Positions 2,893 to 46,637 of a DNA stretch of 64,000 bases are shown one piece after another. How positions within the stretch are numbered: the first letter of the stretch is position 1; every line of letters starts with the position of its first letter. The notes beneath the pieces are model-generated. The model was given only the letters and a program-made list of their open reading frames with translations, did not search any database and was not told the origin of the DNA. The position numbers and the translations under genes were made by a program. The stretch comes from Rickettsiales bacterium (GTDB lineage Bacteria; Pseudomonadota; Alphaproteobacteria; Rickettsiales; JABIRX01): contig JAWUXM010000016.1 in NCBI GenBank assembly GCA_034111325.1, positions 29,214 to 93,213 on the forward strand. Reading direction: 5' to 3'.

Positions 2893-3642
2893 CTATCCAT
2901 TAATTGAAAATTGCAGATAGCAAGCCACCTGATCATTTGTAAGCTTATAGTAAGTATTTGGATAACGCCCACTGATACATTGCACACCACTATCTTTACC
3001 CATTGCTCGCCGCCCATTATCAGCATATACATAACCACGATCCGCCTTGCCATCATCAACCTTCTTATCAAGATTAAAAGCATCAGATGGCGTTAATAAA
3101 GGATACATCAAATTCCCTCTAATGCGCTGCCCTGCCAAACGTAGAAAATTACGATCTGCACCTTTCAGCGGAGCATAAGATTCGTTCATCCTACTATCCC
3201 CTAATATCTGATACGCAGCTCTACGCATAACCGATTTTGGCACATTACGCCCGACTGCAGCTTTATAACGCAAGGTAAAACTAGTTGGCGCAAAACTCCC
3301 AAACCCTGCCAAATATAAATGCTGCCAAGCTCTATAACCTTCTGTATTATCACGGATAATCTCATCACCATCGCCACTACATATATCTTTTTCCGTAGAA
3401 AAATTACCTTTGCAATCATGACCCCAGAATTTCCCTGCATATGAGAAATCTCCAGGCAAAGCCCCATAATAATCACGAAACTCTCTTATCTCAGCGCGGT
3501 AACGCTCAACTTCCGAAAGAACCGTAACACGATTAGCTCCTTTTATAAGTTGTGTAGCATAGCCACAACCGCCAGAAATAAGCGCGATGACTAATAGAAC
3601 AATTGACATTTCAAGCAAAGAGAAGGCAGATTTGGAATTCAT
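2893..3642 (-). CDS. Type IV pilin / pseudopilin-like protein with prepilin-type N-terminus
   Basis: N-terminus MNSKSAFSLLEMSIVLLVIALISGG carries a class III signal: a short basic leader, F+1, E+5 and a hydrophobic helix. Two Cys pairs are present, one near the C-terminus like a D-region loop. It is the first gene of the gspE/gspF operon. Confidence 0.8.
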   Translation of the reverse strand: MNSKSAFSLLEMSIVLLVIALISGGCGYATQLIKGANRVTVLSEVERYRAEIREFRDYYGALPGDFSYAGKFWGHDCKGNFSTEKDICSGDGDEIIRDNTEGYRAWQHLYLAGFGSFAPTSFTLRYKAAVGRNVPKSVMRRAAYQILGDSRMNESYAPLKGADRNFLRLAGQRIRGNLMYPLLTPSDAFNLDKKVDDGKADRGYVYADNGRRAMGKDSGVQCISGRYPNTYYKLTNDQVACYLQFSING

Positions 3643-4284: not shown

Positions 4285-4297
4285 CTCTTGAGGAATA

Positions 4298-4440
4298 CGA
4301 AAAGACCACCGAGTGTTAATCTGAGGATTTTTGTGATGATTTTTGTCAAATGTCCTGTTTGAACGAGTGAACGTATACTTCATACGTGACTCGAGTGAGA
4401 GCAGGACATTTGGCAAAAAGGGTACAAAAAGACCAGATTA
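4298..4440. repeat. Family-B repeat copy B1 (about 145 bp, long imperfect hairpin); its end overlaps the lpdA stop codon
   Basis: Shares tctgaggatttttgtgatgattttt...caaatgtcc...acgtat/atacgt hairpin...aaaaagggtacaaaaagaccaga with copies at 15342, 44838, 54331 and 57975. Confidence 0.8.
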
Positions 4441-5832
4441 TATGTGGATAGATTTTCCACAAGCCTCCAACACCGCCTCATGCATCATCTCTGAAAGCGT
4501 AGGATGTGGGAAGATAGTATGCATTAAATCTTCCTCAGTCGCTTCGATAGTTTTCGCAATTGAAAAGCCTTGCACCATTTCAGTAACTTCGCTGCCGACC
4601 ATATGTGCACCAAGCAATTCACCACTCTGCTCTTCAAAAATAACTTTTACTAAACCTGTCTCCTCACCCATAGCAATTGCTTTGCCATTTGCAGAGAATG
4701 GAAATCTGCCAACGCGAATTTTATGCCCTGCTTCCTTAGCTTTTTCTTCGGTTAAGCCAATTGAAGCAATTTGCGGCGTGCAATATGTACAACCAGGGAT
4801 ATTCTCAATTTTAAGTGGGCGTGGATTTTTGCCAGCAATTTTCTCAGCACAAATAACTGCTTCGTGCGATGCCTTATGCGCAAGCCATGGCGCGCCCACA
4901 ACATCACCAATTGCGTAAATGCCTTTTTCAGCAGTTTCTAAATATGCATCTGTTTTTATATGACCACGATCGAGCTCTATCGCCGTTGATTCCAAACCAA
5001 TATTTTCAACATTAGCAACAATCCCCGCTGCAACAATAACTCTATCAACTTTTACTTTAGTGATTTTGTCATTTTGTTTAATTGCAACTTCAACATCCTT
5101 TTTACCTTTTACAATGCTACTTACTGTAGCATTAGTGAAGAAATCCACTTTGCGTTTTTCAAATTCTTTACGCACAATTTGCGAAATTTCCCTATCCTCC
5201 ACTGGCAAGATATTCTCCGCCATTTCAACGATTGTAACATTACAGCCTAAACCATTATAGAAACTGGCAAATTCCATACCGATTGCACCGCTACCAACAA
5301 CGAGTAAAGATTTTGGCAATTCTTCAGGAACCATAGCTTCCTTATAGCTCCAAATAAATTTCCCGTCTGGTTCAAGATTTGGCAAAATGCGCGCCCTTGC
5401 ACCAGTGGCAATAATAATATTTTTGGCTTGCAGATCCTCAATAGTTTTTCCTTTTTCATCAAGCAAACGTACTGCGTTTTTACCATTTACCATGCCGAAG
5501 CTATTGAAAACTTCGACCTTATGCTTTTTCATTAAAAAGCTAATTCCTTGTGAAAGTTTGCTTGCAACATCACGCGAGCGTTTGATGATTTTTTTAAAAT
5601 CAAATTTGATATCTTTAACGCTAAAGCCATATTCATCAAGATTATGCAAAAGATGATTAATCTCTGAGCAACGCAATAATGCTTTTGTCGGGATACAACC
5701 CCAATTTAAACAAACACCACCAAGATGTTGTTTCTCAACCAGCGCAACATTCAAACCTAGCTGGCTAGCACGGATCGCTGCTACATAACCACCTGGTCCA
5801 CCACCAATTATCACTATATCAAACTTTTCCAT
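4438..5832 (-). CDS. lpdA: Dihydrolipoyl dehydrogenase (E3)
   Basis: GGGPGGYVAAIRA FAD site, redox-active disulfide CLNWGCIPTK, and C-terminal HPTLSE interface motif; 464 aa. Confidence 0.95.
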   Translation of the reverse strand: MEKFDIVIIGGGPGGYVAAIRASQLGLNVALVEKQHLGGVCLNWGCIPTKALLRCSEINHLLHNLDEYGFSVKDIKFDFKKIIKRSRDVASKLSQGISFLMKKHKVEVFNSFGMVNGKNAVRLLDEKGKTIEDLQAKNIIIATGARARILPNLEPDGKFIWSYKEAMVPEELPKSLLVVGSGAIGMEFASFYNGLGCNVTIVEMAENILPVEDREISQIVRKEFEKRKVDFFTNATVSSIVKGKKDVEVAIKQNDKITKVKVDRVIVAAGIVANVENIGLESTAIELDRGHIKTDAYLETAEKGIYAIGDVVGAPWLAHKASHEAVICAEKIAGKNPRPLKIENIPGCTYCTPQIASIGLTEEKAKEAGHKIRVGRFPFSANGKAIAMGEETGLVKVIFEEQSGELLGAHMVGSEVTEMVQGFSIAKTIEATEEDLMHTIFPHPTLSEMMHEAVLEACGKSIHI

Positions 5833-5865
5833 AACTCTTCCTAACTTTTATTAATAAAAAACACT

Positions 5866-5905
5866 GTCATTGCCTGAATTTTTACAAAAAAAGTCAGGCA
5901 ATGAC
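5866..5905 (-). terminator. 12-bp perfect inverted repeat (gtcattgcctga..tcaggcaatgac) downstream of glmS; probable terminator built from family-A repeat termini
   Basis: The stem is seen directly. On the minus strand it is followed within 4 nt by GTTTTTTATT. It lies between the glmS stop (5934) and the lpdA start (5832). Confidence 0.5.
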
Positions 5906-5933
5906 AAAAATCCATCAAAAACAACCCGGTTAA

Positions 5934-12906: not shown

Positions 12907-12940
12907 GACTTATGATAAATTTAAAGCACTTTCCCAAAGG

Positions 12941-13085
12941 GGTCATCCTGAACTTGTTTCAGGATCTGCATAATTAGCAAGATAGTAAAGGCAAGGACTT
13001 TTCACTCAAGCCATATCCTAATATAAAAACTAAACTGCTGCACTATTGGTTACTCAGCAGATCCTGAAACAAGTTCAGGATGACC
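12941..13085. repeat. Family-C MITE-like element copy C1 (about 145 bp with about 29-bp terminal inverted repeats)
   Basis: ggtcatcctgaacttgtttcaggatctgc ... gcagatcctgaaacaagttcaggatgacc. It lies between cobT and cobS. A second full copy is at 33492-33639. Confidence 0.85.
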
Positions 13086-13189
13086 TCTTTTACGCCGCAA
13101 AATCTTTCCTAAATAGCAATGCCTAATAATGCTCTTATCAAATCCCATAATCAAATTATTTAACAAAAAGGGCGCAAAAGACCCAGATT

Positions 13190-14122
13190 TTATAATTCTT
13201 CTCCAAAAACTCGTTGATACATCTCCGCAATAATTTCTCTTTCACCAAAATCACAACGATTGAAAAACGCATATTTAAAGCTTTCCGCAATTGAACCAAA
13301 AATCTTCATATTAGCTGCCCAACTTAATACTGTCCTTACTGACATTAAAGTAGAGATCTCGCCTGCTTTAAAGGCTTGCCGAGTTAAGTTTGCCATAGCA
13401 ACAAACTCTTTTATTTCCTGTGCTTTTAAGATCTTGCCAAATTTTGCCTTAATAATCTTCTCTTCATTAGCTTGCGAAAGATAATCAAGATTCGCCACAA
13501 TATCCCATCTATCAAGCTGCCCTTGATTGATCAACGACGTGCCATGATATATTCCGCTATCATCACCTAGACCAACTGTGTTTGCTGTTGCAAAAATACG
13601 GAAATCAACATGCGGTGTAATTACTTCATTTTTATCAAGCAGGTTGAATTTACCATTTTGCTCAAGCAAACGCTGAATAATAAACATTACATCTGGACGC
13701 CCTGCATCATATTCATCAAGCACTAGAGCAACAGGGCGGCGAACAGCAAAAGGCACAACCCCTTCTTGAAATTCGGTTACTTGCTTGCCATCACGCAAAT
13801 TTATAACGTCACGCCCGATCAAATCCATCCTTGTGATATTACCATCTAAATTTACACGAATACATTGCCAGTTTAGACGTGCGGCGATTTGCTCAATATG
13901 AGTTGATTTACCCGTACCGTGATAGCCTTGTAGCAAAACACGTTTGTTAAATTTAAAACCGGCGAGAATCGCCTTTGTTGTATTTTCATCAAAAACATAA
14001 TTTTTATCAATATCCGGCACTAATTCACTAGGCTCATTAAAGATTTCTAGCTCAAAATCTTGACTGAGGTGAAATAGTTTTTTAACATTGGCTGGAGCTT
14101 TAGTTTTTATAGCTTGAGACAT
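13190..14122 (-). CDS. cobS: CobS-like AAA+ (MoxR-type) ATPase
   Basis: Walker A GYHGTGKSTH, Walker B LVLDEYD; 310 aa. Confidence 0.88.
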   Translation of the reverse strand: MSQAIKTKAPANVKKLFHLSQDFELEIFNEPSELVPDIDKNYVFDENTTKAILAGFKFNKRVLLQGYHGTGKSTHIEQIAARLNWQCIRVNLDGNITRMDLIGRDVINLRDGKQVTEFQEGVVPFAVRRPVALVLDEYDAGRPDVMFIIQRLLEQNGKFNLLDKNEVITPHVDFRIFATANTVGLGDDSGIYHGTSLINQGQLDRWDIVANLDYLSQANEEKIIKAKFGKILKAQEIKEFVAMANLTRQAFKAGEISTLMSVRTVLSWAANMKIFGSIAESFKYAFFNRCDFGEREIIAEMYQRVFGEEL

Positions 14123-14216: not shown

Positions 14217-15341
14217 ATGCAACTCTCAATCGATAGAAACACCCTCCTAAAATCACTTACCCATATTCAAGGCGTAGTTGAAAGACGCAATACCATCCCT
14301 ATTCTTTCCAATGTCAAACTAGAAGCGAAAGCAAACAAATTATCCCTCACTGCGACTGATATGGATTTAGCGATTTCTGAAGATATCACAGCTGATGTTC
14401 AAACAGAAGGGACAACAACAGTTCCTGCTCATACTTTGCACGATATCATCCGTAAATTACAAGAAGGCGAAAAGATCGAGATTTCTTTAAAAAATGAGAA
14501 ACTACTTATCAAAGCCAAAGCCTGTAAGTTTTCTCTACCATGCTTGTCCGCTGAACAGTTCCCAACTATTAGCGCTGATGATAGCTCACATAATTTCAAC
14601 ATCACTATTGCTGATTTACTTAAATTAATCGACAAAGCTAAATTTGCGATCTCAACTGAAGAAACTCGCTATTACCTTAACGGGATATTCTTACATCATG
14701 CTAAAAACCAAGATGAGAAGGATGTATTACGCGCTGTTGCAACAGATGGTCATCGCTTAGCAAGAGTTGAAGTTGCCTTACCTGAAGGCGCAAAAGATAT
14801 ACCTTCAGTCATCATCCCGCGTAAAGCAATTATGGAGATCAAGAAAATCCTTGATGAGGAAGATAAGACCAAAACTGTCACTGTTGCATTATCTGACACT
14901 AAAATCAAAATCACTGGCAGCTCAGTGGTCCTAGTTTCAAAGCTAATCGACGGCACATTCCCTGATTATGAAAAAGTTATTCCAAGTGCTAATAACATAA
15001 TTATGGGCACTAAAGTAAAGCCTCTATGCGCAGCGATTGATCGTGTTTCAACTATCGCATCTGATAAAACACGTGGAGTAAAAATCCTACTAAGCAATAA
15101 TAAACTAACCCTATCAGCTAACAATGTTGATATTGGTGATGCACAAGAAGAGTTAGATGTTAAATTCGATGCAGCGAATGATATTGAGACTGGCTTCAAT
15201 TCAAAATATTTACTAGAAATGGCTTCCGTGCTGGAAGGTGAAGATGCTGAATTTTTCTTTTCAGATTCCATGTCACCGACGATTGTAAAGGATTCGGCTG
15301 ACTTGTCTTCCTTGTACGTAATAATGCCTATGCGCATCTAA
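14217..15341 (+). CDS. dnaN: DNA polymerase III beta sliding clamp
   Basis: 374 aa. N-terminus MQLSIDRNTLLKSLTHIQGVVERRNTIPILSNVKLEA. C-terminus ends ..YVIMPMRI. Confidence 0.95.
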   Translation: MQLSIDRNTLLKSLTHIQGVVERRNTIPILSNVKLEAKANKLSLTATDMDLAISEDITADVQTEGTTTVPAHTLHDIIRKLQEGEKIEISLKNEKLLIKAKACKFSLPCLSAEQFPTISADDSSHNFNITIADLLKLIDKAKFAISTEETRYYLNGIFLHHAKNQDEKDVLRAVATDGHRLARVEVALPEGAKDIPSVIIPRKAIMEIKKILDEEDKTKTVTVALSDTKIKITGSSVVLVSKLIDGTFPDYEKVIPSANNIIMGTKVKPLCAAIDRVSTIASDKTRGVKILLSNNKLTLSANNVDIGDAQEELDVKFDAANDIETGFNSKYLLEMASVLEGEDAEFFFSDSMSPTIVKDSADLSSLYVIMPMRI

Positions 15342-15475
15342 AAACTAATCCTTTTGGGTGCTTTTTAGTGAATAACCTTTGTTCAATCGACTCGTGTATG
15401 AAGTATACACGTCGCTCTCTCGCAAAGAACATTCACTAAAAATCCCTCCAAAAAATTTAGTCTTCAACATCGCGC
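15342..15475. repeat. Family-B repeat copy B5 (inverted orientation), starting directly after the dnaN stop
   Basis: Reverse complement matches B copies: ..ccttttgggtgcttttt..., hairpin cgtgtatgaagtatacacg, ...aaaaatccctcc. Confidence 0.75.
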
Positions 15476-16673: not shown

Positions 16674-16718
16674 TAAGAGAATACTGAACTGTTTTAAAAT
16701 CTCCGCTATAGAGATATA

Positions 16719-16770
16719 TCACTCTTTCGAAGAGACCATGAAATAAATTGAGGGTGACGTATTTGGCAGA
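16719..16770. repeat. Family-C right-half fragment (C6)
   Basis: atcactctttcgaagagaccatgaaataaattgagggtgacgtatttggcag is near-identical to 54027-54078. Confidence 0.6.
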
Positions 16771-19145: not shown

Positions 19146-19180
19146 TTTTATTTTACCTAATTGTTGTTTCCCTCCCCCCG

Positions 19181-19606
19181 CTACAAAGGAGAGGGAGTGA
19201 TCTTGTTACCTAACTCCACTGGAGGCATATAGTTCTCATCATGTTTCGCAAGGATTTCATCAGCAACAAATACATTATCTTTTATCCTGCCATTTGCCAC
19301 AACGCCCTGCCCTTCACGAAATAAATCTGGCAGAATGCCTTGATAGAGAGTTTTTATTTCTTGCTTAAAATCCGTAATTATAAACTCCACCTTGTTACCA
19401 TCATGATAAATGATGCTGCCTTTTTTTACCATACCACCAATTCTTATCTTTTTATTAATGCTAAGCTGTGACAGTTCAGACGGTGCATAGAAAAACATAA
19501 TATTTTGACGAAAATTACTATAAAGTAAACCAGCAAGACCAAGAATTATAGATAAAGTTGCGATGATAAAAACCGCACGATTTTTTTTATTTTTTCTTCT
19601 GAACAT
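19181..19606 (-). CDS. ccmE: Cytochrome c maturation heme chaperone CcmE
   Basis: N-terminal membrane anchor and heme-binding LAKHDENYMPP. The last codons (ITPSPL*) lie inside a family-D hairpin repeat. Confidence 0.92.
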   Translation of the reverse strand: MFRRKNKKNRAVFIIATLSIILGLAGLLYSNFRQNIMFFYAPSELSQLSINKKIRIGGMVKKGSIIYHDGNKVEFIITDFKQEIKTLYQGILPDLFREGQGVVANGRIKDNVFVADEILAKHDENYMPPVELGNKITPSPL

Positions 19607-21216: not shown

Positions 21217-21326
21217 GTCATTGCCTGAACCGCCTGCAATTTTAGGTCGATCCAAGGGCAAAAGTCGAGATATTTATTTGTGGCTCTAGACTCCTAGAAT
21301 TTCTTTAAAATTCAAAAAGTGGCACA
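21217..21326. repeat. Family-A palindromic element, degenerate copy A4
   Basis: The left end gtcattgcctgaaccgcctgcaattttaggtcgatccaaggg matches A copies. The right end is decayed. Confidence 0.55.
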
Positions 21327-21336
21327 AAATTGAAAA

Positions 21337-23205
21337 TCACTGTACTTTATTGATGTTCTCATTGACTCGCACTTCGTATTTTTTATATAAATGCATATTA
21401 TATTGTTCCAGTATCGCTTCTTGAAATGTTGAGCTTAATAAATTTGTCATTTGTCTTAATTCTGCTTGATGTCCATCTTCCTTAGCAGGACTAATTCCCT
21501 CTAATACCGCAAAATCATACCCGCCATTTGTATTAGCATAGGGCATAGTAGCATTAGCTATATCTAGAGCAAAAATCTCTACAACTAAACCCTGTGATAA
21601 TGAGCTCTCCGTACGCTGTAATTTTACGTCACGCTCTAATTGCAAACCATATTTCGTTGCTAAGTTATTAGCCTTTTTACCGTTATTAATTTCTTCCACA
21701 TAAGATTGCGCAAGATTATATAATTCATCCTCAGCTTTTTGATTCCGCCATTCCGTCACTACCAAACCCTTGACTTCATCAAGGGCTTTATACCTCTCGC
21801 CCAAAACATTGTCTATTTGTACAACCATGAATATTTCATCACCAACAATTGTTGCAATTGGCTCTGTGACTTCATCAATATTAAAGACACTATCGATAAT
21901 TTCTTGGCTAAATGTTGGATATGTCTTTTCTAGAGAACCAAAAAATCTACCCTCTTCTTTTGCGACAGAATTATTGCTCTGTACCGCGATTTGATATTTT
22001 GTAGCTGCTTCCTTCATTGTAGCACCAGAAGATAATTCATCCTCTATTTGGTTAAATGTTTCCAAAGCAAATTCACAAGATTTCTCTTTTCTAAGAGTTT
22101 GTTCTATATCAGATTTAACCTGAGCAAAAGTAAGTACCTTCTCTGGAGTAACTTTATCAACCATGAATATATGCCAACCAAATGGTCCCGCAATTGGCTT
22201 GGTAATTTGCGCTTCTGATAGAGCAAACACCTCATCCCTAAATTCACGAATCAACTCCTCTTTCGTCAACTCACCAAGGCTAACTTGATTTTTATTGAGA
22301 CCGCTTATTTTCGCAACTGCGTAAAAATCCTCCCCCGCTTTGATCTTCTTATATGCAGCTTTTGCATCTTTTTTAGTTTTAAAGAACACTTGCTTTAAGT
22401 TACGAGACTCGGGCGTTTTGTAATTGTTTATATTGCTTTCATATTCAGTTTGCAAAAGCTCTTGACTAATCTCTACCCTTCCATGCATAGCCTTGCAACT
22501 GACATCTAAATAAGAGATGTCTCTTGTTTCAGCTTGCATAAAAAACTCTTTGTTTTTCTCGTGATAGCCAATTAAATCAGCCTCACTAGGAATAAAAGAT
22601 ATTTTATCAATTTTATTTTTTGGTACTGTTATAATATCAACTGTGCGAGCTTCATATTCATATTTATATATGTCACTTACCAGCCCATCAAGCGTAGCAT
22701 TATTGGCCGTTAAGGCATCTATTATATAGTTACGGGCAAGTTCTTTGTTGAGATTAGAAATATAGAGTTCTTCAATTAGACCAGAAATATTCATTACTAG
22801 GTTGAAACGTTTCTTGCTAAACTTCCCTTCATCATCAAAAAACCGTTTATCATTAAAAATCTGCTCTAGCGCTACACGATCATCCATTAATATTTCTAAT
22901 GATTTAGCTTCCTGCTCAAACAATCTATCTATGATTAACTGTCTCAAGGTAAGTTGACGTAGAAACAACTCATCATTCTCAGTTAATTTATTTGCTCCAT
23001 TCTCAGAAGCTCTAGAACGCTGACGCGAAAGCTCTTGCTGAAACTGTTGCATAGTCACCGCCTCATCACCAACTGTAGCAATATCACTACCAGCAGTGCT
23101 GCGAAAAATATCACCTACTCCCCAAAGGACAAATGATAACATGATTAGCACTAAGATTGATTTAACAAAAAGCGTATTTGTTACTTGCCTAATTTTACCT
23201 AGCAT
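21337..23205 (-). CDS. ppiD: Periplasmic chaperone / peptidyl-prolyl isomerase PpiD-like
   Basis: N-terminal TM anchor MLGKIRQ..ILVLIMLSFVLWG, a SurA_N-like region, and a parvulin-like segment (GPFGWHIFMVDK); 622 aa. Confidence 0.8.
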   Translation of the reverse strand: MLGKIRQVTNTLFVKSILVLIMLSFVLWGVGDIFRSTAGSDIATVGDEAVTMQQFQQELSRQRSRASENGANKLTENDELFLRQLTLRQLIIDRLFEQEAKSLEILMDDRVALEQIFNDKRFFDDEGKFSKKRFNLVMNISGLIEELYISNLNKELARNYIIDALTANNATLDGLVSDIYKYEYEARTVDIITVPKNKIDKISFIPSEADLIGYHEKNKEFFMQAETRDISYLDVSCKAMHGRVEISQELLQTEYESNINNYKTPESRNLKQVFFKTKKDAKAAYKKIKAGEDFYAVAKISGLNKNQVSLGELTKEELIREFRDEVFALSEAQITKPIAGPFGWHIFMVDKVTPEKVLTFAQVKSDIEQTLRKEKSCEFALETFNQIEDELSSGATMKEAATKYQIAVQSNNSVAKEEGRFFGSLEKTYPTFSQEIIDSVFNIDEVTEPIATIVGDEIFMVVQIDNVLGERYKALDEVKGLVVTEWRNQKAEDELYNLAQSYVEEINNGKKANNLATKYGLQLERDVKLQRTESSLSQGLVVEIFALDIANATMPYANTNGGYDFAVLEGISPAKEDGHQAELRQMTNLLSSTFQEAILEQYNMHLYKKYEVRVNENINKVQ

Positions 23206-24350: not shown

Positions 24351-25979
24351 ATGAAAAACACGAAATTTATATTCATAACTGGCGGCGTTGTATCATCCCT
24401 TGGCAAAGGCATTACTGGTGCTAGCCTTGCCTCCATATTACAAGCTCATGGCTATAAAGTCCGCATCAGAAAATTAGACCCTTATCTAAATGTTGACCCA
24501 GGTACAATGAGCCCTTTCCAACATGGTGAAGTTTACGTCACTGATGATGGCGCTGAGACTGACCTTGACCTTGGTCATTATGAAAGATTCACTGACATTA
24601 ATACTAAAAAATCAGACAATGTCACATCTGGTCAAATTTACTCAAAACTACTTAGTAAAGAGCGCAAAGGAGACTATCTCGGCGGAACAGTCCAAGTCAT
24701 TCCACATGTTACTGATCTAATAAAAGAATTCATCCTCAGCAACATTACTGATGAAGATTTTATAATTTATGAAATCGGCGGCACAGTTGGTGACATTGAA
24801 GGCTTACCATTCTTTGAAGCAATTCGTCAAATTGGCTATAAATTCGGTCGTGAAAAATCCCTCTTCATTCACTTAACTTTAGTGCCTTATATCAAAGCTG
24901 CTAAAGAGATAAAAACCAAACCAACACAACATTCCGTCAAAGAATTGCGCTCAATCGGTATCCAACCTGACATCCTAATCTGCCGCAGTGAAGTTCCAGT
25001 TCCCGCAGCTGAACGTAAAAAAATTGCACTATTTTGCAATGTTGATGAAAAGAATGTAATTCAAGCACCTGATGTTGACACAATCTACCGCATACCGCTA
25101 GTTCTTCACCAACAAAAGCTTGATCGGCAAATTCTTGAACATTTTAATCTAGCGATTGAGTGCGAGCCTAATCTTGAAAAATGGCAAAATATTGTTAGCC
25201 AAATTAACAAAAATAAAAAGACGGTTAATATTGCCATAGTAGGAAAATATACTGGTTTAAAAGAGGCGTACAAATCTTTGATCGAATCCTTAGAGCATGC
25301 GGCAATTAACCTTGATGTAAAAGTAGAAATCATCTGGATTGATGCAAGAACACTCAATAAAAAAACTACAAAAGCAAGCCTTGTTAGTGCAGACGGAGTC
25401 TTGGTACCAGGCGGCTTTGGCACAGAAGGCATAAAAGGTAAAATCGCTGCAATTACTTACGCACGTGAAAACAACATTCCCTTCTTCGGAATTTGCCTTG
25501 GTATGCAAATGGCAGTTATAGAATTTGCTGAAAATGTTGCTAAAATTAACTCACCATATTCAAGTGAGTTCGTCAAAAAAAGAAACGGCAACCAATTAAT
25601 CGGTTTGATGACCGAATGGTTCAAAAGTGGTAAAAAACAACAACGCAAACATAATGGTGATTTAGGCGGGACAATGCGCTTAGGAGCCTATCCTTGTAAA
25701 ATAATTGCCAAAACTTTAGCCAGTAAAATCTATGGCATGAGCAAGATCGACGAACGTCACAGGCATCGTTACGAGTTTAATATTAATTATAAAAAACAGC
25801 TGGAAAAGGCTGGCATGGTTTTCTCCGGAATGTCCCCTGATAATAATTTAGCTGAAATTATCGAGCTGCCTACAAATGATTTCTTCATCGCTGTGCAATT
25901 TCACCCTGAACTTAAATCACGACCTTTCTCACCGCACCCTTTATTTACAAATTTTGTCAAAGCAAGTAGTAAAATATAA
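24351..25979 (+). CDS. pyrG: CTP synthase
   Basis: FIFITGGVVSSLGKG, GATase nucleophile GICLGMQ, and C-terminal QFHPE; 542 aa. Confidence 0.96.
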   Translation: MKNTKFIFITGGVVSSLGKGITGASLASILQAHGYKVRIRKLDPYLNVDPGTMSPFQHGEVYVTDDGAETDLDLGHYERFTDINTKKSDNVTSGQIYSKLLSKERKGDYLGGTVQVIPHVTDLIKEFILSNITDEDFIIYEIGGTVGDIEGLPFFEAIRQIGYKFGREKSLFIHLTLVPYIKAAKEIKTKPTQHSVKELRSIGIQPDILICRSEVPVPAAERKKIALFCNVDEKNVIQAPDVDTIYRIPLVLHQQKLDRQILEHFNLAIECEPNLEKWQNIVSQINKNKKTVNIAIVGKYTGLKEAYKSLIESLEHAAINLDVKVEIIWIDARTLNKKTTKASLVSADGVLVPGGFGTEGIKGKIAAITYARENNIPFFGICLGMQMAVIEFAENVAKINSPYSSEFVKKRNGNQLIGLMTEWFKSGKKQQRKHNGDLGGTMRLGAYPCKIIAKTLASKIYGMSKIDERHRHRYEFNINYKKQLEKAGMVFSGMSPDNNLAEIIELPTNDFFIAVQFHPELKSRPFSPHPLFTNFVKASSKI

Positions 25980-26802
25980 AGACCTAATCGGTGTTGGGCT
26001 TCGCCAACCACACTACAAGGACTTCATTGAAGGCACGCCAGATATTGGCTGGCTCGAGGTACATAGTGAGAATTTCTTTGCTGAAGGTGGTGCATCTATT
26101 GAATTCTTACATAAAATTGCCAATAAATACCCATTAAGTATGCATGGCGTTGGCTTATCCCTTGGCTCTAGCGACGGCTTGGATAAACACCACCTTACAA
26201 AACTTAAAAAATTAATTAGTGAAGTTAAACCCTTCTTAGTTTCTGAACATGTTTCATGGTCAGGCTTTGGCGGACAATTCTTAAATGATCTACTTCCCTT
26301 GCCTTATAATCAAGAATCACTGGAGATTATTTGTGACAACATAAATTATCTACAAGATTTTCTTGGTCGCGAGATTCTCATTGAAAACCCCTCTTCCTAT
26401 ATGGCTTTCGACGAATCTAGCATGAGTGAGTGGGAGTTTATGAGACGAGCTCAAGAAAAAACTAATTGTGGATTATTACTTGATTTAAACAATATTTTTG
26501 TCTCCGCTTATAATCATAACTTCTCAAGCATAGATTATATTGACCACATGCCAATAAAAGCTGTAAAAGAAATTCACCTTGCTGGCCCCACTAAAAAACA
26601 ATTAAAAAATAAAGAAATTTTTATTGATAGCCATAGTACAAAAGTCATGGCTGAAGTCTGGCAATTATACGAATATGCAACAGGTATTTTTGGCGCAGTA
26701 CCTACGTTGATTGAATGGGACAATAACATTCCAGAGCTTAGTATTTTGCTAGGGGAAGCAGAAAAAGCACGTAAAATTATCAGAACCCATGACGGATCTT
26801 AA
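25954..26802 (+). CDS. DUF692-family multinuclear non-heme iron oxidase (MNIO; MbnB/BufB/HvfB-like)
   Basis: IGVGLRQPHYKDF...WLEVHSENFF...HGVGLSLGS...LVSEHVSW...IENPSSY...LLDLNNIFVS...EIHLAG matches the TIM-barrel DUF692 pattern. I prefer TTG at 25954, which leaves 11 aa before IGVGLR. The track ATG at 25876 would overlap pyrG by 104 nt. Confidence 0.85.
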   Translation: MSKQVVKYKDLIGVGLRQPHYKDFIEGTPDIGWLEVHSENFFAEGGASIEFLHKIANKYPLSMHGVGLSLGSSDGLDKHHLTKLKKLISEVKPFLVSEHVSWSGFGGQFLNDLLPLPYNQESLEIICDNINYLQDFLGREILIENPSSYMAFDESSMSEWEFMRRAQEKTNCGLLLDLNNIFVSAYNHNFSSIDYIDHMPIKAVKEIHLAGPTKKQLKNKEIFIDSHSTKVMAEVWQLYEYATGIFGAVPTLIEWDNNIPELSILLGEAEKARKIIRTHDGS

Positions 26803-27502
26803 AAACATACAAAAAGACTTTATTGAGAAGATTTACGACTCATCAATTGATGATGAGTTAATTGATATATATCGCAATAATATTTTCCACAACCTAACTT
26901 CGAGCCTTCAAAATATTTACAAAACCACAGAGAAAATTGTCGGTGAAAAATATTTCAAACATTTAGCACTCGAATATATAAAGCAACATCCCTCAGAAAG
27001 TGGTAATCTAGAAGATTATGGTGAGTACTTTCCAACCCACCTTAAAGAAATCGATATTATAAAAAAACAATTGCCATACCTACCTGATATAGCAAAAATT
27101 GACTGGCTCTATCATTTTTCATATCAACAAAAAGATACTAAACCACTTGCGGCTGAACAATTAACAAGCCTCAAAGAGGAAGATTATTTTAAGTTAAAAT
27201 TTAAATTACATCCTGCCATATTTTTCTACAAATCAGCATATCCTATCTGGCAAATTTGGCAGCTTAATAATTGCACTGATAATTCGCTAAGAGTGAATTT
27301 CAATGATGGTAGTGAAAATATTATCATTATGCGGCAAGGAATAAAAACTCTTATAGAACCTATTGACCAAGCAGAATATGTGTTTCTACAAGAAATTCAA
27401 AACGGCAAAACACTTTATGCAATTTTTAGATTACTTGACAAAGAAAACCTCAACTCTAACATCGGCGATATGCTCAAAAAGTTTTCACAACAATTAATTT
27501 AA
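26789..27502 (+). CDS. DUF2063-family protein (MNIO partner, BufC/HvfC-like)
   Basis: 237 aa with N-terminus LKNIQKDFIEKIYD...IYRNNIFHNLTSSL, typical of DUF2063. It overlaps the DUF692 gene by 14 nt. Confidence 0.75.
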   Translation: MTDLKNIQKDFIEKIYDSSIDDELIDIYRNNIFHNLTSSLQNIYKTTEKIVGEKYFKHLALEYIKQHPSESGNLEDYGEYFPTHLKEIDIIKKQLPYLPDIAKIDWLYHFSYQQKDTKPLAAEQLTSLKEEDYFKLKFKLHPAIFFYKSAYPIWQIWQLNNCTDNSLRVNFNDGSENIIIMRQGIKTLIEPIDQAEYVFLQEIQNGKTLYAIFRLLDKENLNSNIGDMLKKFSQQLI

Positions 27503-27514
27503 TAGGTTATCAAC

Positions 27515-27973
27515 ATGACAGCGAAATCATACAATAAAAAGTCTGGTTACAGCAAATGCATAATTAATGCAGGAGAAAAATTCATTGCTATTTTAAACTA
27601 CATCTCCCCACTATTTAACCTCGCTGTTAGGCTCTGGATTGCCTCTATCTTCTGGAAATCTGGCATAACAAAAATAGCCAATTGGGATCAAACATTATTC
27701 CTGTTCGAATATGAATATGCAGTGCCATTACTGCCAGTGGCTTTAGCAGCAATGATGTCCACAGCAGCAGAGCTTGCTTGCCCTGTCTTCCTCGTACTTG
27801 GCCTAGCTACAAGGTTCGCTGCTTTACCTTTATTCATTATGACAGTAATCATCCAATATACCGTAATTGCCCATGACCAACATTATTACTGGATGACAGC
27901 TTTACTATTCCTCATCTTCTATGGTGCTGAAAAATTATCGCTTGATCATATCTTAAGCAGAAAGAGACGCTAG
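27515..27973 (+). CDS. DoxX-family membrane protein
   Basis: 152 aa with 4 TM segments. RLWIASIFWKSGITKI is a DoxX-type motif. It starts 12 nt after the DUF2063 gene. Confidence 0.75.
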   Translation: MTAKSYNKKSGYSKCIINAGEKFIAILNYISPLFNLAVRLWIASIFWKSGITKIANWDQTLFLFEYEYAVPLLPVALAAMMSTAAELACPVFLVLGLATRFAALPLFIMTVIIQYTVIAHDQHYYWMTALLFLIFYGAEKLSLDHILSRKRR

Positions 27974-28037: not shown

Positions 28038-28082
28038 ATTTTGCATCGCAAAAGAGTCATCCTGAATTTTTTCAGGATCTGC
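28038..28082. repeat. Family-C solo terminal repeat (C3)
   Basis: ttttgcatcgcaaaagagtcatcctgaattttttcaggatctgc. Confidence 0.7.
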
Positions 28083-28165
28083 ATATTAGTAAGAAAGTTA
28101 GTTCAGACAAATTAAAAATTTTTGATTTGCGACACTCCCACATCCTACAAACCCTTACCCCATAC

Positions 28166-28189
28166 CTCTCCCTTATGATTAAGGGAGAG
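28166..28189. repeat. Family-D short hairpin (ctctccctta/taagggagag)
   Basis: Perfect 10-bp stem between the convergent doxX-like and parC genes. Related hairpins are at 19170, 34823, 54096 and 61583. Confidence 0.7.
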
Positions 28190-28234
28190 CTTTAACGGAA
28201 TAGTGTAAAAAGGGCGCAAAAAGATTATTTTGCT

Positions 28235-30442: not shown

Positions 30443-30523
30443 TTTTCTTTTTTATATTTCTCTTCTTACTATCATCACCTGAATTCTTGCCCATAATTTC
30501 AAACGCGATCTGTACCCCACCGT

Positions 30524-30633
30524 GTCATTACCCGAATTCCGTAGGAATTCTAGGGTAATCCAGGAGCAAAGGGCAAGATATTAATTTATGACTCTGGATT
30601 GCCCTAGAATTCCTACGGAATTCAGGCAATGAC
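30524..30633. repeat. Family-A palindromic MITE-like element copy A1 (110 bp)
   Basis: gtcattacccgaattccgtaggaattctagggtaatccagg...ctggattgccctagaattcctacggaattcaggcaatgac. The two arms are reverse complements of each other. Confidence 0.85.
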
Positions 30634-30704
30634 AAATCTTTTAACTTAAAACCATGCTCCTTTCTTGCGAATAAGATTTAGCGAGAAATAAAAGTAGATC
30701 TCAC

Positions 30705-33491: not shown

Positions 33492-33639
33492 AGTCATCCT
33501 GAATTTATTTCAGGATCTGCTGAGTGAGCCAATAATATAGTAGCTTAATTTTTATAGTAAGACATGGTATGAGTATCAATTATTTACTTCCATTTTCGTG
33601 GCTAAATTGTGCAGATCCTGAAATAAATTCAGGATGACT
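33492..33639. repeat. Family-C MITE-like element copy C2 (about 148 bp)
   Basis: agtcatcctgaatttatttcaggatctgc ... gcagatcctgaaataaattcaggatgact. The flanking ttttgcggtgcaaaa extension is shared with the copies at 28038 and 54066. Confidence 0.85.
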
Positions 33640-44688: not shown

Positions 44689-44837
44689 ATTGTCTCTCTC
44701 TAATAGGATTAATTGTATAGGCAAAATATCGCATCAAACTGAAAAAGCAAAGCTTATGTAGAGTAATACCATTACTCAAAATTTAGCATTTGAAGTATAT
44801 TAGCATTATATGATAAATGTTTCCTAAGTTATTTAGC

Positions 44838-45010
44838 AAAAAGCGCACAGAAAGACCACGACAATATAAATTAGAAATTTCTGTGATGATTTTTTACAAA
44901 TGTCCTTTGACATTGCAGTGACGTGTATTCTTCATACACGAGCAAAATGGAAAAGGTTATTTGTGAAAAAGGGCACAGAAAGACTAATTTATCAAAAAGA
45001 CTAATTTATT
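44838..45010. repeat. Family-B repeat copy B2, flanked by about 20-bp direct repeats; its end contains the hisF stop codon
   Basis: Left aaaaagcgcacagaaagaccacg, core ..tgtgatgatttttt..cgtgtattcttcatacacg.., right aaaaagggcacagaaagactaatttat. The end segment caaaaagactaatttatt is duplicated. Confidence 0.8.
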
Positions 45011-45773: not shown

Positions 45774-46637
45774 CTAATTGTCTTTGATGATTTTAGAAAT
45801 TTCCTTTTCAACCATCTCTTTAACAAGCTTTGGCAGATTATCATCCATCCATTCTTTTAACATAGGTTTCATAAGCTTTACTGATGCAATCTCTTGAATA
45901 ATTTTAGATGTTTCACCAGCTAATTGCGCAGAAATTATTTGCGAAATATCCTCTGATTCTGCTAATTTCTTATCAGGCGTATCATCAGATGGCGTTTCTT
46001 CTATTATCTCTTCATCTGCACTATCCTCGAAACCTAAATCTTGGTCAAGATCTTCACTCGAAAGCAATTGATCACGCCTTCTTTTTAATTCTTGACCTTC
46101 CTCAAGATGATCCAACCCTAAATCACTACCAACCATTCTTGACCAAGCTTCATGCTTATCCTCAACATGTTCTTCGCCCTCATCTTCGTCATCATCACCT
46201 TCGTCATCATCGTCACCCTCATCTTCGTCTTCGTCATCATCGTCACCCTCATCATCATCTTCTTCGTCATCATCGTCACCCTCCTCATCATCTTCTTCGT
46301 CCTCTTCAACCCCTGTATATTCCGCACCATCTTGGTCTTCATTAAGCGCTTCTTCAATTGCTGCTAGCTCAGAAGAAAACCTCCCTTCATCACTCTTAAC
46401 TTCTATTTCTTGTATTTCTTCTACTTCTTCTGTTGCTTGCTGAGTTATTTCAGAAATTGCGCCATCATCCTGCACAGTGCGAGTTAAATTAATAACATCA
46501 TCATCTTCACTAATCTCTTCCTGACCTGTTGGTTTAGACCTATCAATTGCCAAATCATCACCTTCAAGCATTGAGCGAAGTTTCTTGAGGATCTCTTGCG
46601 TATCAGCGGCAGAGCCTGATTGTCCTGTTTTAGTCAT
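45774..46637 (-). CDS. popZ: PopZ-like polar organizing protein (DUF2497) with an expanded hyper-acidic linker
   Basis: The N-terminal helix [16 protein letters not shown] and the C-terminal [31 protein letters not shown] parallel Caulobacter PopZ (MEEILASIRRIISEDD and LLRPLLKEWLDQNLPRIVE), quoted from memory. The central tract is about 60 residues of almost pure D/E/G. Confidence 0.65.

Follow-up and report, generated by a model that had tools for sequence, protein, structure and literature searches.

A family of ~125-bp hairpin-forming repeats placed at gene boundaries in a Rickettsiales-like bacterium

Why should a 19-nt motif lie directly behind the stop codons of seven genes, in one orientation relative to each of them? 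The question is raised by the hisF locus in a 64,000-nt stretch of contig JAWUXM010000016.1 from a Rickettsiales bacterium (hereafter the window), where an earlier note had described five copies of a repeat, Family B, ending in this motif. For the present analysis the window was joined, via proteins near its ends, to two flanking pieces of 7.5 kb (L119) and 7.1 kb (L120), giving 78.65 kb of sequence; all conclusions on Family B come from nine loci on this one contig (78.6 kb) of one genome. Family B is a previously undescribed family of hairpin-forming repeats of about 125 bp; the kind of element is known, its strict placement is unusual. The earlier note had offered two readings, targeted insertion and a conserved function in the 3' untranslated region (3' UTR). 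The former is favoured here by terminal inverted repeats with TA tips, a filled and an empty site, stacked copies and relatives without the motif, and the latter was weakened. Family B is thus probably a family of non-autonomous palindromic mobile elements (~125 bp) resembling miniature inverted-repeat transposable elements (MITEs) and comparable to the Rickettsia palindromic elements (RPEs), with oriented insertion at gene boundaries.

The repeat unit and its copies

Searches with a profile hidden Markov model (HMM; nhmmer) found seven full units of 124-129 bp in 78.65 kb, five in the window and two in tandem just beyond it. Besides these, three variants (B2) and about four to five left-arm fragments were present in 78.6 kb. 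The five full copies reported previously were recovered by nhmmer at 4318-4441 (minus), 15340-15460 (plus), 44869-44992 (minus), 54361-54486 (minus) and 57987-58112 (minus). Their lengths of 140-170 bp were not: the unit measures about 125 bp, and the longer extents had taken in a second, older 19-mer 8-10 nt past the right end. The 19-mer is also no free-standing motif, every 'solo' occurrence being a left-arm fragment or a variant element with another core. The copies are as follows.

4318-4441, minus strand: full B1 copy at lpdA (nhmmer E=1.5e-29); left tip TAATCTGG gives the lpdA TAA (4438-4440), right tip faces a convergent SNase-like gene
4288-4306, minus strand: degenerate older 19-mer GTCTTTTCGTATTCCTCAA, 10 nt past the right-tip TA of the lpdA element, with a private 'GTA' variant in common with the proximal 19-mer
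13156-13192, minus strand: left-arm-only fragment at cobS (tip TAAAATCTGG, 19-mer, ~12 nt; nhmmer model positions 3-38); TAA stop 13190-13192 in the tip
15339-15460, plus strand: full B1 copy of a divergent subfamily at dnaN (19-mer ATCCTTTTGGGTGCTTTTT; nhmmer E=8.6e-31); the dnaN TAA (15339-15341) is its first three bases
28112-28231, minus strand: variant B2 at parC (left arm, 17-nt spacer, GC hairpin CTCTCCCTTAATCATAAGGGAGAG, right-arm remnant AAATCAAAAATTTTTAATT)
44869-44992, minus strand: full B1 copy at hisF, the locus of the earlier note (nhmmer E=2.2e-29); whole-length hairpin with z = -7.7 in sense and -8.5 in antisense
44993-45009, minus strand: 17-nt duplicate of the left tip, ATAAATTAGTCTTTTTG, holding the last two hisF codons and TAG (45001-45003)
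44825-44858, minus strand: older left-arm fragment (19-mer and GCTAAATAAC; nhmmer model positions 9-42), 10 nt past the right-tip TA of the hisF element
54361-54488, minus strand: full B1 copy at ndk (nhmmer E=3.1e-31), starting at or overlapping the ndk TAA (54486-54488)
54285-54358, minus strand: older B2 variant distal to ndk (tip CACAAATA, identical 19-mer, GC hairpin)
57987-58112, minus strand: full B1 copy (nhmmer E=1.7e-33), flanked on one side by a duplicated piece of the tRNA-Ser promoter and on the other by a 21-nt fragment from the 5' end of tRNA-Ser (58113-58135)
61537-61610, plus strand: variant B2 at ppa; the last two ppa codons and TAA (61543-61545) lie in the tip AAAAATTAATC, GC hairpin at 61579-61604
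L119 18809-19061, beyond the window: two tandem full copies at tRNA-Met, 55% identical to each other

The B2 copies (parC, ppa and ndk-distal) are homologous over ~65 nt, comprising the 19-mer, a spacer of 15-18 nt and a GC hairpin (CTCTCCCTT..AAGGGAGAG). The cobS and hisF-distal pieces are left-arm fragments of 34-37 nt. Left arms alone thus occur as fragments, and no solo right arm was found in the 78.65-kb contig.

Aligned in gene sense, the 19-mer and the tip preceding it (TAAATTAG or TAA(A)TCTGG) make up the left arm of an imperfect palindrome of ~125 bp. The unit runs from a variable tip (TAAATTAG or TAAATCTGG) through the 19-mer, CAAATAACCTTT and the central hairpin into the right arm (AAAGGACATTTG, AAAAATCATCACAAAAAT, tip CTAATTTA), which is an imperfect reverse complement of the left arm. 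The 19-mer pairs with right arm AAAAATCATCACAAAAAT, which leads into tip CTAATTTA or CCTCAGATTA; the core formerly given for the copies (..TGTGATGATTTTT..) is the reverse complement of this partner. The terminal inverted repeat measures ~35-40 bp, and the 19-mer is part of one of its arms. Left arm TAAATTAG-TCTTTTTGTGCCC-TTTTTCACAAAT corresponds to TAAATTAGAAATTTTTGTGATGATTTTTTGCAAAT, the reverse complement of the right arm, and from one subfamily to another the two tips change together. Each tip starts with TA in the copies at lpdA, hisF, ndk and the tRNA-Ser fragment, the best preserved of all, and left and right tips are identical over 8 nt (both TAAATTAG).

RNAalifold predicted a single hairpin over the entire unit. 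Over 35 base pairs in the seven full copies, whose pairwise identity is 52-82%, 93.4% of cells were paired, compared with at most 55% when the partners were slid by 1-3 columns. Double changes were found in 15 of the 35 pairs versus 7.0 +/- 1.8 in shuffles (0/500 as high) and were present in all four helices, tips and 19-mer included. The covariation noted before in the central hairpin is therefore real and moreover spans the whole element. On the consensus structure G.U cells (8) and A.C cells (11) were balanced, so that neither strand has the better consensus pairing. The remainder of the sequence does distinguish the strands: the sense strand folds 7-19 kcal/mol less stably than the antisense strand in all seven B1 copies, and it is C-rich and G-poor in the same seven (C 24-30 versus G 14-17), even in minus-oriented copies, against the local GC skew. 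An asymmetric internal loop between the 19-mer and its partner is conserved (GCCC opposite ATCATC). Most reading frames of the element contain stops, and no protein matches were obtained for an alignment of the element translations, including in-frame or spuriously called copies elsewhere.

Position at stop codons and tRNA genes

The 19-mer RTCTTTYTGYRCSCTTTTT had 8 exact matches versus 0.00 expected, and 11 matches versus 0.92 expected with up to 3 mismatches. One of these, at 26800 (3 mismatches), sits within a coding sequence (CDS) and is probably a chance match. The seven genes concerned were named correctly before (lpdA, cobS, dnaN, parC, hisF, ndk and ppa all agree with NCBIfam), and the close spacing to their stop codons stands. 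The range of 0-10 nt does not: the gaps from stop to 19-mer are 4 nt (lpdA), 6 (cobS), 6 (dnaN), 9 (parC), 16 (hisF), 7 (ndk) and -1 (ppa), hence -1 to +16. At all seven CDS loci the 19-mer reads in gene sense, five of the genes being on the minus and two on the plus strand. About 15% of the genes carry the motif.

The conserved tip contains the stop codon of six of the seven genes: for lpdA, cobS, dnaN and ndk this is the TAA within TAA(A)T.., for ppa the TAA within AAATTAATC, and for hisF the TAG within ..ATTAG. For hisF, the stop and the last two codons had been placed inside the element; both are indeed tip sequence, namely that of the 17-nt partial duplicate of the tip at 44993-45009. Compared with their NCBIfam profiles, the encoded proteins come within 0-2 residues of the profile end (cobS 8) and are thus full-length, so the elements are located precisely at native gene ends.

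Two further stop-proximal sequences resemble part of the 19-mer: AATCTTTTTTTGCGAAAAGATT at 2855-2885, past the stop of the open reading frame (ORF) at 2893-3642, and TTTTGTGCCACTTTTTG at 21300-21330, past that of the ORF at 21337-23205. Missed by both pattern and HMM searches, they could be left arms in a far advanced state of decay or coincidental matches.

Two of the nine loci are at tRNA genes. In L119 (18809-19061) the left tip lies against position +1 of tRNA-Met, and both copies run antisense to this tRNA as well as to the cytochrome c1 gene upstream. The constant orientation relative to the gene claimed in the earlier note therefore holds for the CDS loci and fails here. The 57987-58112 copy follows no CDS, its left tip lying against the 21-nt 5' fragment of tRNA-Ser. 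What all nine loci have in common is a left tip turned towards a gene boundary (for the tRNAs, position -1 to -5), whereas 'sense to the upstream gene' does not apply to every one of them. Significance was calculated from a null model in which copies are placed and oriented at random within the intergenic sequence of the 78.6-kb contig, collapsed to 6.1 kb (58 regions). Under this model, finding left tips no more than 16 nt away from a gene boundary at 9/9 loci has p = 2.5e-8, and finding 7 or more of the 9 at a CDS stop has p = 1.6e-7. Two other palindromic repeat families on the contig keep a distance of 27-425 nt from genes, apart from a single copy at 2 nt, and boundary placement is therefore specific to Family B. 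Since the copies at the tRNA loci are antisense and the pairing has no strand preference, the rule appears to act at the level of DNA rather than RNA.

The tRNA-Ser fragment is part of a direct duplication, 313 bp in size, that involves the tRNA-Ser promoter region. In the second copy, where the tRNA is intact, AAA occupies the exact place of the 126-bp element in the first; this empty site (58281-58321) reads CTC-AAA-TTCGG. The duplication is a paralogous filled/empty pair with its boundaries at the element tips and is evidence for mobility. The duplicated parts of the tRNA-Ser(GGA) locus, 57928-58135 versus 58241-58406, comprise a promoter part of 40 nt (93% identical) and the initial 21 nt of the tRNA gene. 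Beyond these, the upstream copy runs into ~105 nt of unrelated sequence (58136-58240) in place of the tRNA body.

At hisF, ndk, lpdA and tRNA-Met diverged generations of the element are stacked at one TA, and at four loci the right-tip TA is followed after 8-10 nt by the next older 19-mer. The distal 19-mers at hisF, ndk and, in degenerate form, lpdA belong to other units: the tips upstream of them differ, and at ndk the core differs too. The simplest reading of these arrangements is that the TA was used a second time, the new copy coming to lie behind the stop codon and ahead of the older copy's left tip. At ndk a B1 insertion has displaced the older B2 element (54285-54358) from the stop codon. 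The two 19-mers of a locus have private variants in common (GCGCGC at ndk, TTTCTG at hisF, including its older fragment at 44825-44858, and GTA at lpdA). A long target-site duplication (19 bp or more) can be ruled out as the origin of the paired 19-mers; the sequences upstream of the two differ, and the proximal tip covaries with the right tip.

Insertion, gene-end function or recombination

With a length below about 300 bp, no coding capacity, multiple dispersed copies and terminal inverted repeats, Family B has several of the features by which MITEs are recognised. Under the favoured reading the 19-mer would be bound by a transposase whose gene lies elsewhere in the genome, and insertion would occur at TA dinucleotides. 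Its placement is strongly biased, with the left tip outward, to a TA at or a few bases from a gene boundary. The target proposed before, TAA/TTTATT, is not supported in that form: the flanks have only TA in common, and TAAAT is tip sequence of the element itself. With a tip that starts (TA)A..TAG, an element entering a TAA or TAG stop codon at its TA restores the stop and leaves the gene intact. The same TA at the outer edge of an older left arm is hit again, yielding tandem stacks of the same orientation, and later decay would strip the distal side and leave left-arm fragments beside genes. The elements are probably selfish and near-neutral, and any effect on the 3' UTR would be secondary.

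Several observations weigh against this reading. No transposase, integrase or recombinase gene and no autonomous partner with matching ends were found in the 78.65 kb. Target duplication is ambiguous: four copies have TA at both ends, but TA is palindromic, so that its duplication is indistinguishable from a TA belonging to the tip, and the sole paralogous empty site (CTC-AAA-TTCGG) has AAA in place of TA. Plain TA targeting accounts for neither the preference for gene boundaries nor the fixed orientation. The private variants shared within stacks are not predicted by independent insertions and would need local conversion. Complementarity over the full length, in copies that differ by 20-45%, is not needed by a DDE transposase and hints at hairpin-dependent propagation or selection in situ. 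Finally, the sample is small, with nine loci on one contig.

Causes of the fixed orientation were considered separately. Regeneration of stop codons is ruled out, since both tips read TAAATTAG and, being identical for 8 nt, cannot set orientation. The direction of replication is likewise ruled out; six loci are on the minus and three on the plus strand of a single domain of negative GC skew. Three explanations each cover part of the pattern. The left arm, which is constant and the best conserved part, could be the stronger enzyme site, with new copies delivered beside resident left arms in the same orientation; this covers stacking, not the first arrival at a gene end. Orientation at CDS ends might instead be under selection: the antisense RNA hairpin, predicted to be stronger by 7-19 kcal/mol, may impede terminating ribosomes as stop-proximal REPs (repetitive extragenic palindromic sequences) do, and the two tRNA cases would then be chance (25%). 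Hairpin-dependent, single-stranded mobilisation with an intrinsic strand specificity is the third. A further possibility, raised only tentatively and with a good deal of doubt, is that Family B or its enzyme homes in one orientation to gene boundaries, recognising either some mark of the DNA immediately beyond a mature gene product (CDS stop, tRNA 5' end) or an existing left arm, and inserting its left end outward at a fixed distance; in a related version, the 19-mer is the gene-end signal of ~15% of the genes in this lineage.

An explanation on the level of RNA would make the pyrimidine-rich left arm (GUCUUUUUGYGCCCUUUUU...) a native or co-opted gene-end signal whose placement is kept by selection, with roles in Rho loading and termination, as a 3'-UTR stabiliser or processing site, or as a modulator of translation termination like REPs within 15 nt of a stop codon. 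All seven CDS copies are indeed in sense and within 16 nt of the stop, and the 19-mer is the sole module common to B1, B2 and the fragments despite their differing tips and cores. In addition, a GC hairpin follows 15-18 nt after the 19-mer in three cases, left arms outlast the loss of the remaining element, and the C-rich, G-poor, less stably folding sense strand of all seven B1 copies has a rut-like composition that suits Rho loading. We nevertheless regard such a function as unlikely to have set the placement. Two of the nine loci are in tRNA 5' leaders, antisense to transcription and with the same left-tip adjacency, the base-pair statistics have no strand preference, and only ~15% of the genes carry the motif. 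Some copies lie within probable operons (hisF-hisE, cobS-cobT, dnaN-recF), where termination would be polar. The terminator scan gave 16 sites versus 14.7 expected and the promoter signals likewise stayed within shuffle expectation. No terminator site fell on an element, the hairpins being followed by A-rich sequence and no U-tract, and an intrinsic (Rho-independent) terminator was rejected on this ground, there being no GC hairpin with U-tract in gene sense. Sites resembling sigma-70 promoters were not enriched and none coincided with elements. An outward sigma-70 promoter in the left arm driving the tRNAs was rejected as well; the best hexamers fitted by hand matched at 3-4 of 6 positions each, and the consensus scan was empty at the arms.

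The comparison of gene ends in relatives that the earlier note had proposed could be carried out at parC, in two distant genomes. In the two nearest relatives, whose parC is 63% identical, the 19-mer is missing from the 22 kb surrounding parC in each genome, the parC ends included, and the C-terminus of ParC is conserved in both despite the absence of the motif. A native, conserved 3' signal of Rickettsiales is not supported by these two nearest relatives, which lack the motif; as evidence on insertion the comparison is weak, the relatives being distant.

Mobilisation as a single-stranded hairpin, by an HUH/Y1 transposase (of IS200/IS605 type or like a REP-associated tyrosine transposase, RAYT) or by a tyrosine recombinase resembling integron integrases, would give strand-specific insertion and thereby a fixed orientation. 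It suits the complementarity over the full 125 nt with 15 covarying pairs in copies only 52-82% identical, the conserved asymmetric loop between the 19-mer and its partner, the G.T-type pairs by which one strand folds 7-19 kcal/mol better in seven of seven copies, and the orientation-specific outcome. Elements of the IS200/IS605 types, however, have subterminal hairpins and no long terminal inverted repeats, and their insertion point is the 3' side of an invariant tetra- or pentanucleotide; the left flanks here have no conserved motif of this kind. Orientation is independent of the replication strand (six minus, three plus, one GC-skew domain), no HUH or tyrosine recombinase gene was found in 78.6 kb, and full-length palindromy is also normal in MITEs thought to be moved by DDE enzymes (PMC2229807). 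This mechanism seems to us slightly less likely still than a gene-end signal.

Very improbable, finally, is integration at att-like 19-mers, in which the solos would be attachment sites (empty or left after excision) and the full copies modules between direct 19-mers, as with dif/pdif or attL/attR. The units at hisF and ndk do lie between direct 19-mers 128 bp apart that are identical (ndk) or differ by one base (hisF) and have private variants in common, and the solos are left-arm only. The sequences upstream of the two ndk 19-mers differ, however (TAAATTA versus CACAAATA), and changes in the upstream tip are matched by changes in the right tip (helix 1, with double changes at 4 pairs). The proximal 19-mer is therefore part of the element and the distal one part of an older element with its own core. 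In addition, the copy at the tRNA-Ser fragment, the dnaN copy and the paralogous empty site have no convincing second 19-mer, and no recombinase gene lies nearby.

Database searches returned no relative of the element. Rfam 15 matched only two tRNAs in the window, and a permissive Rfam scan of the ndk element gave chance matches to microRNA hairpins of at most 18 bits, compared with gathering scores of 95-117. Searches with blastn against PLSDB plasmids yielded chance matches only. A gapped full-element pattern, which matches four copies in the window, had 0 hits in metagenome and viral contig collections, the metagenome set not containing the window's own contig. A degenerate 18-mer had at least 117 single, scattered matches in 596 Gb of genome contigs, which is uninformative, a few hundred being expected by chance on a rough estimate. 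A search with ankyrin-protein paralogues for further contigs of the same genome returned generic ankyrin matches only.

Neighbouring features, related families and meaning

The window forms part of Ga0455689_062714, a 102-kb contig from JGI metagenome 3300041951. The analysed sequence has a GC content of ~38% and a negative GC skew along its whole length, and it encodes housekeeping genes, ankyrin-repeat proteins and large repeat proteins. The nearest non-self ParC homologues are 63% identical and come from metagenome-assembled genomes (MAGs) labelled Rickettsiaceae or Rickettsiales. With homologues this distant at best, the host is placed, on protein comparison, as a deep-branching, uncultured Rickettsiales-like bacterium with no close sequenced relative.

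A cluster at 25876-27973, unexpected for a Rickettsiales-like genome, looks like one for a ribosomally synthesised and post-translationally modified peptide (MbnB/TglH/ChrH-family enzyme, DUF2063 protein and HvfX-family Cu-binding maturation protein). Its ORF at 25876 overlaps the CTP synthase ORF by ~100 nt, and the real start is probably further downstream. Two ORFs without Pfam match encode an acidic (D/E-rich) protein with 9/15-nt periodic repeats (45774-46637) and a 1414-aa protein with 264/294-nt tandem repeats and GCGGCT runs (48220-52464). Both may be lineage-specific surface or effector proteins.

Three other repeats were seen on the contig. The second palindromic family (GTCATCCTGAAnnnnTTCAGGATCTGC) is found at 12936-13090, 28056-28085, 33493-33638, 54038-54096 and 57869-57896, with 16690-16767 matching 53997-54074. 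It often occurs as inverted pairs ~110 nt apart, 29-425 nt from genes, none abutting. The third (TGTCATTGCCTGAATTC..GAATTCTAGGGCAATCCAG) lies at 5865-5906, 30523-30634, 54193-54277 and 61918-62030 and, in L119, at 14633-14667 and 19157-19192; one copy begins 2 nt past the stop of an Sdh5-like gene at 61915, and the rest are 27-372 nt from genes. A REP-like, GC-rich hairpin (CTCTCCCTT..AAGGGAGAG) has at least five copies (19170-19197, 28166-28189, 54097-54118, 54291-54313 and 61579-61604), three of them 15-18 nt after a Family B 19-mer and two alone, none followed by a T-run.

Bacterial MITEs form long stem-loops with TA termini (PMC2229807). The anatomy of Family B matches this class, as reviewed by Delihas, in size, terminal inverted repeats, TA tips, stem-loop, subfamilies, dispersed and stacked copies, filled/empty pair and lineage restriction (PMC2229807). 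Within the Rickettsiales Family B most resembles the RPEs by description. RPEs (Ogata et al. 2000, 2002, as summarised in PMC2229807) likewise have a Rickettsiales host, a size class of 105-146 bp, a stem-loop with terminal inverted repeats and several subfamilies. They share TA termini in at least some cases, an association with RNA and protein genes, and the lack of an identified transposase. RPEs are best known, however, for in-frame insertion inside coding genes, whereas all Family B copies are extragenic, reaching no further into a gene than its last 1-3 codons. The hosts differ too, that of Family B being 63% identical in ParC to MAGs labelled Rickettsiaceae.

In Coxiella burnetii, the MITEs QMITE1 and QMITE2 extend 1-50 bp into the 3' ends of housekeeping genes (kdgK, ogt, recN, ruvB, ubiB and others; PMC5896051). 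Like Family B they belong to an intracellular bacterium, overlap gene 3' ends, can supply C-terminal residues or stops and act as hot-spots of further insertion. In contrast, they lie in both orientations across a gammaproteobacterial genome, and no rule of end to gene is reported for them (PMC5896051). A relationship to Family B in sequence is not expected. MITEs of the Correia/NEMIS, RUP and ERIC types (100-160 bp) have TA termini or TA duplications and long-hairpin transcripts like Family B and are co-transcribed with their neighbours; RUP is thought to be mobilised in trans by a transposase of the IS630 family (PMC2229807). Unlike Family B they are scattered between genes with no fixed end-to-gene rule, and their outward promoters, integration host factor (IHF) sites and RNase III processing are experimentally supported, whereas Family B has no promoter enrichment.

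Enterobacterial REPs and the mosaic elements built from them (BIMEs) are extragenic palindromes concentrated just past stop codons, where structure within ~15 nt can affect expression of the upstream gene. A stop-proximal REP effect on translation was reportedly described by Liang, Rudd and Deutscher in 2015. Unlike Family B, REPs are 20-40 bp long, carry a GTAG or CGTC tag and have RAYT transposases (PMC3733652, PMC2817692). An assignment to REP/BIME with RAYT was rejected: the unit measures ~125 bp, there is no tag at either tip, and no Y1/RAYT gene is present in 78.6 kb. Tn7 inserts at attTn7 past glmS at a fixed short distance and in one orientation, leaving the gene unharmed, through a dedicated protein that recognises this one gene. 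Family B, by contrast, sits at many unrelated genes and at tRNA 5' ends.

If the placement rule were a small-sample effect, Family B would be merely one more MITE family. If it holds genome-wide, Family B would be a rare case of a bacterial mobile element with end- and orientation-specific targeting of gene boundaries that restores the stop codon it enters, that is, a general 'safe-site' targeting for a bacterial MITE, like that of Tn7 at glmS but at many genes. For the annotation of Rickettsiales MAGs it means that the last codons and stops of hisF, ppa, lpdA, cobS and dnaN are element-derived. The finding bears on target choice by the enzymes that move RPE-like elements, which to our knowledge have not been identified in 25 years. 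It also bears on how 3' UTRs and tRNA leaders in compact genomes gain structured RNA, and on how selfish DNA may persist in the compact genomes of intracellular bacteria without damage to genes.

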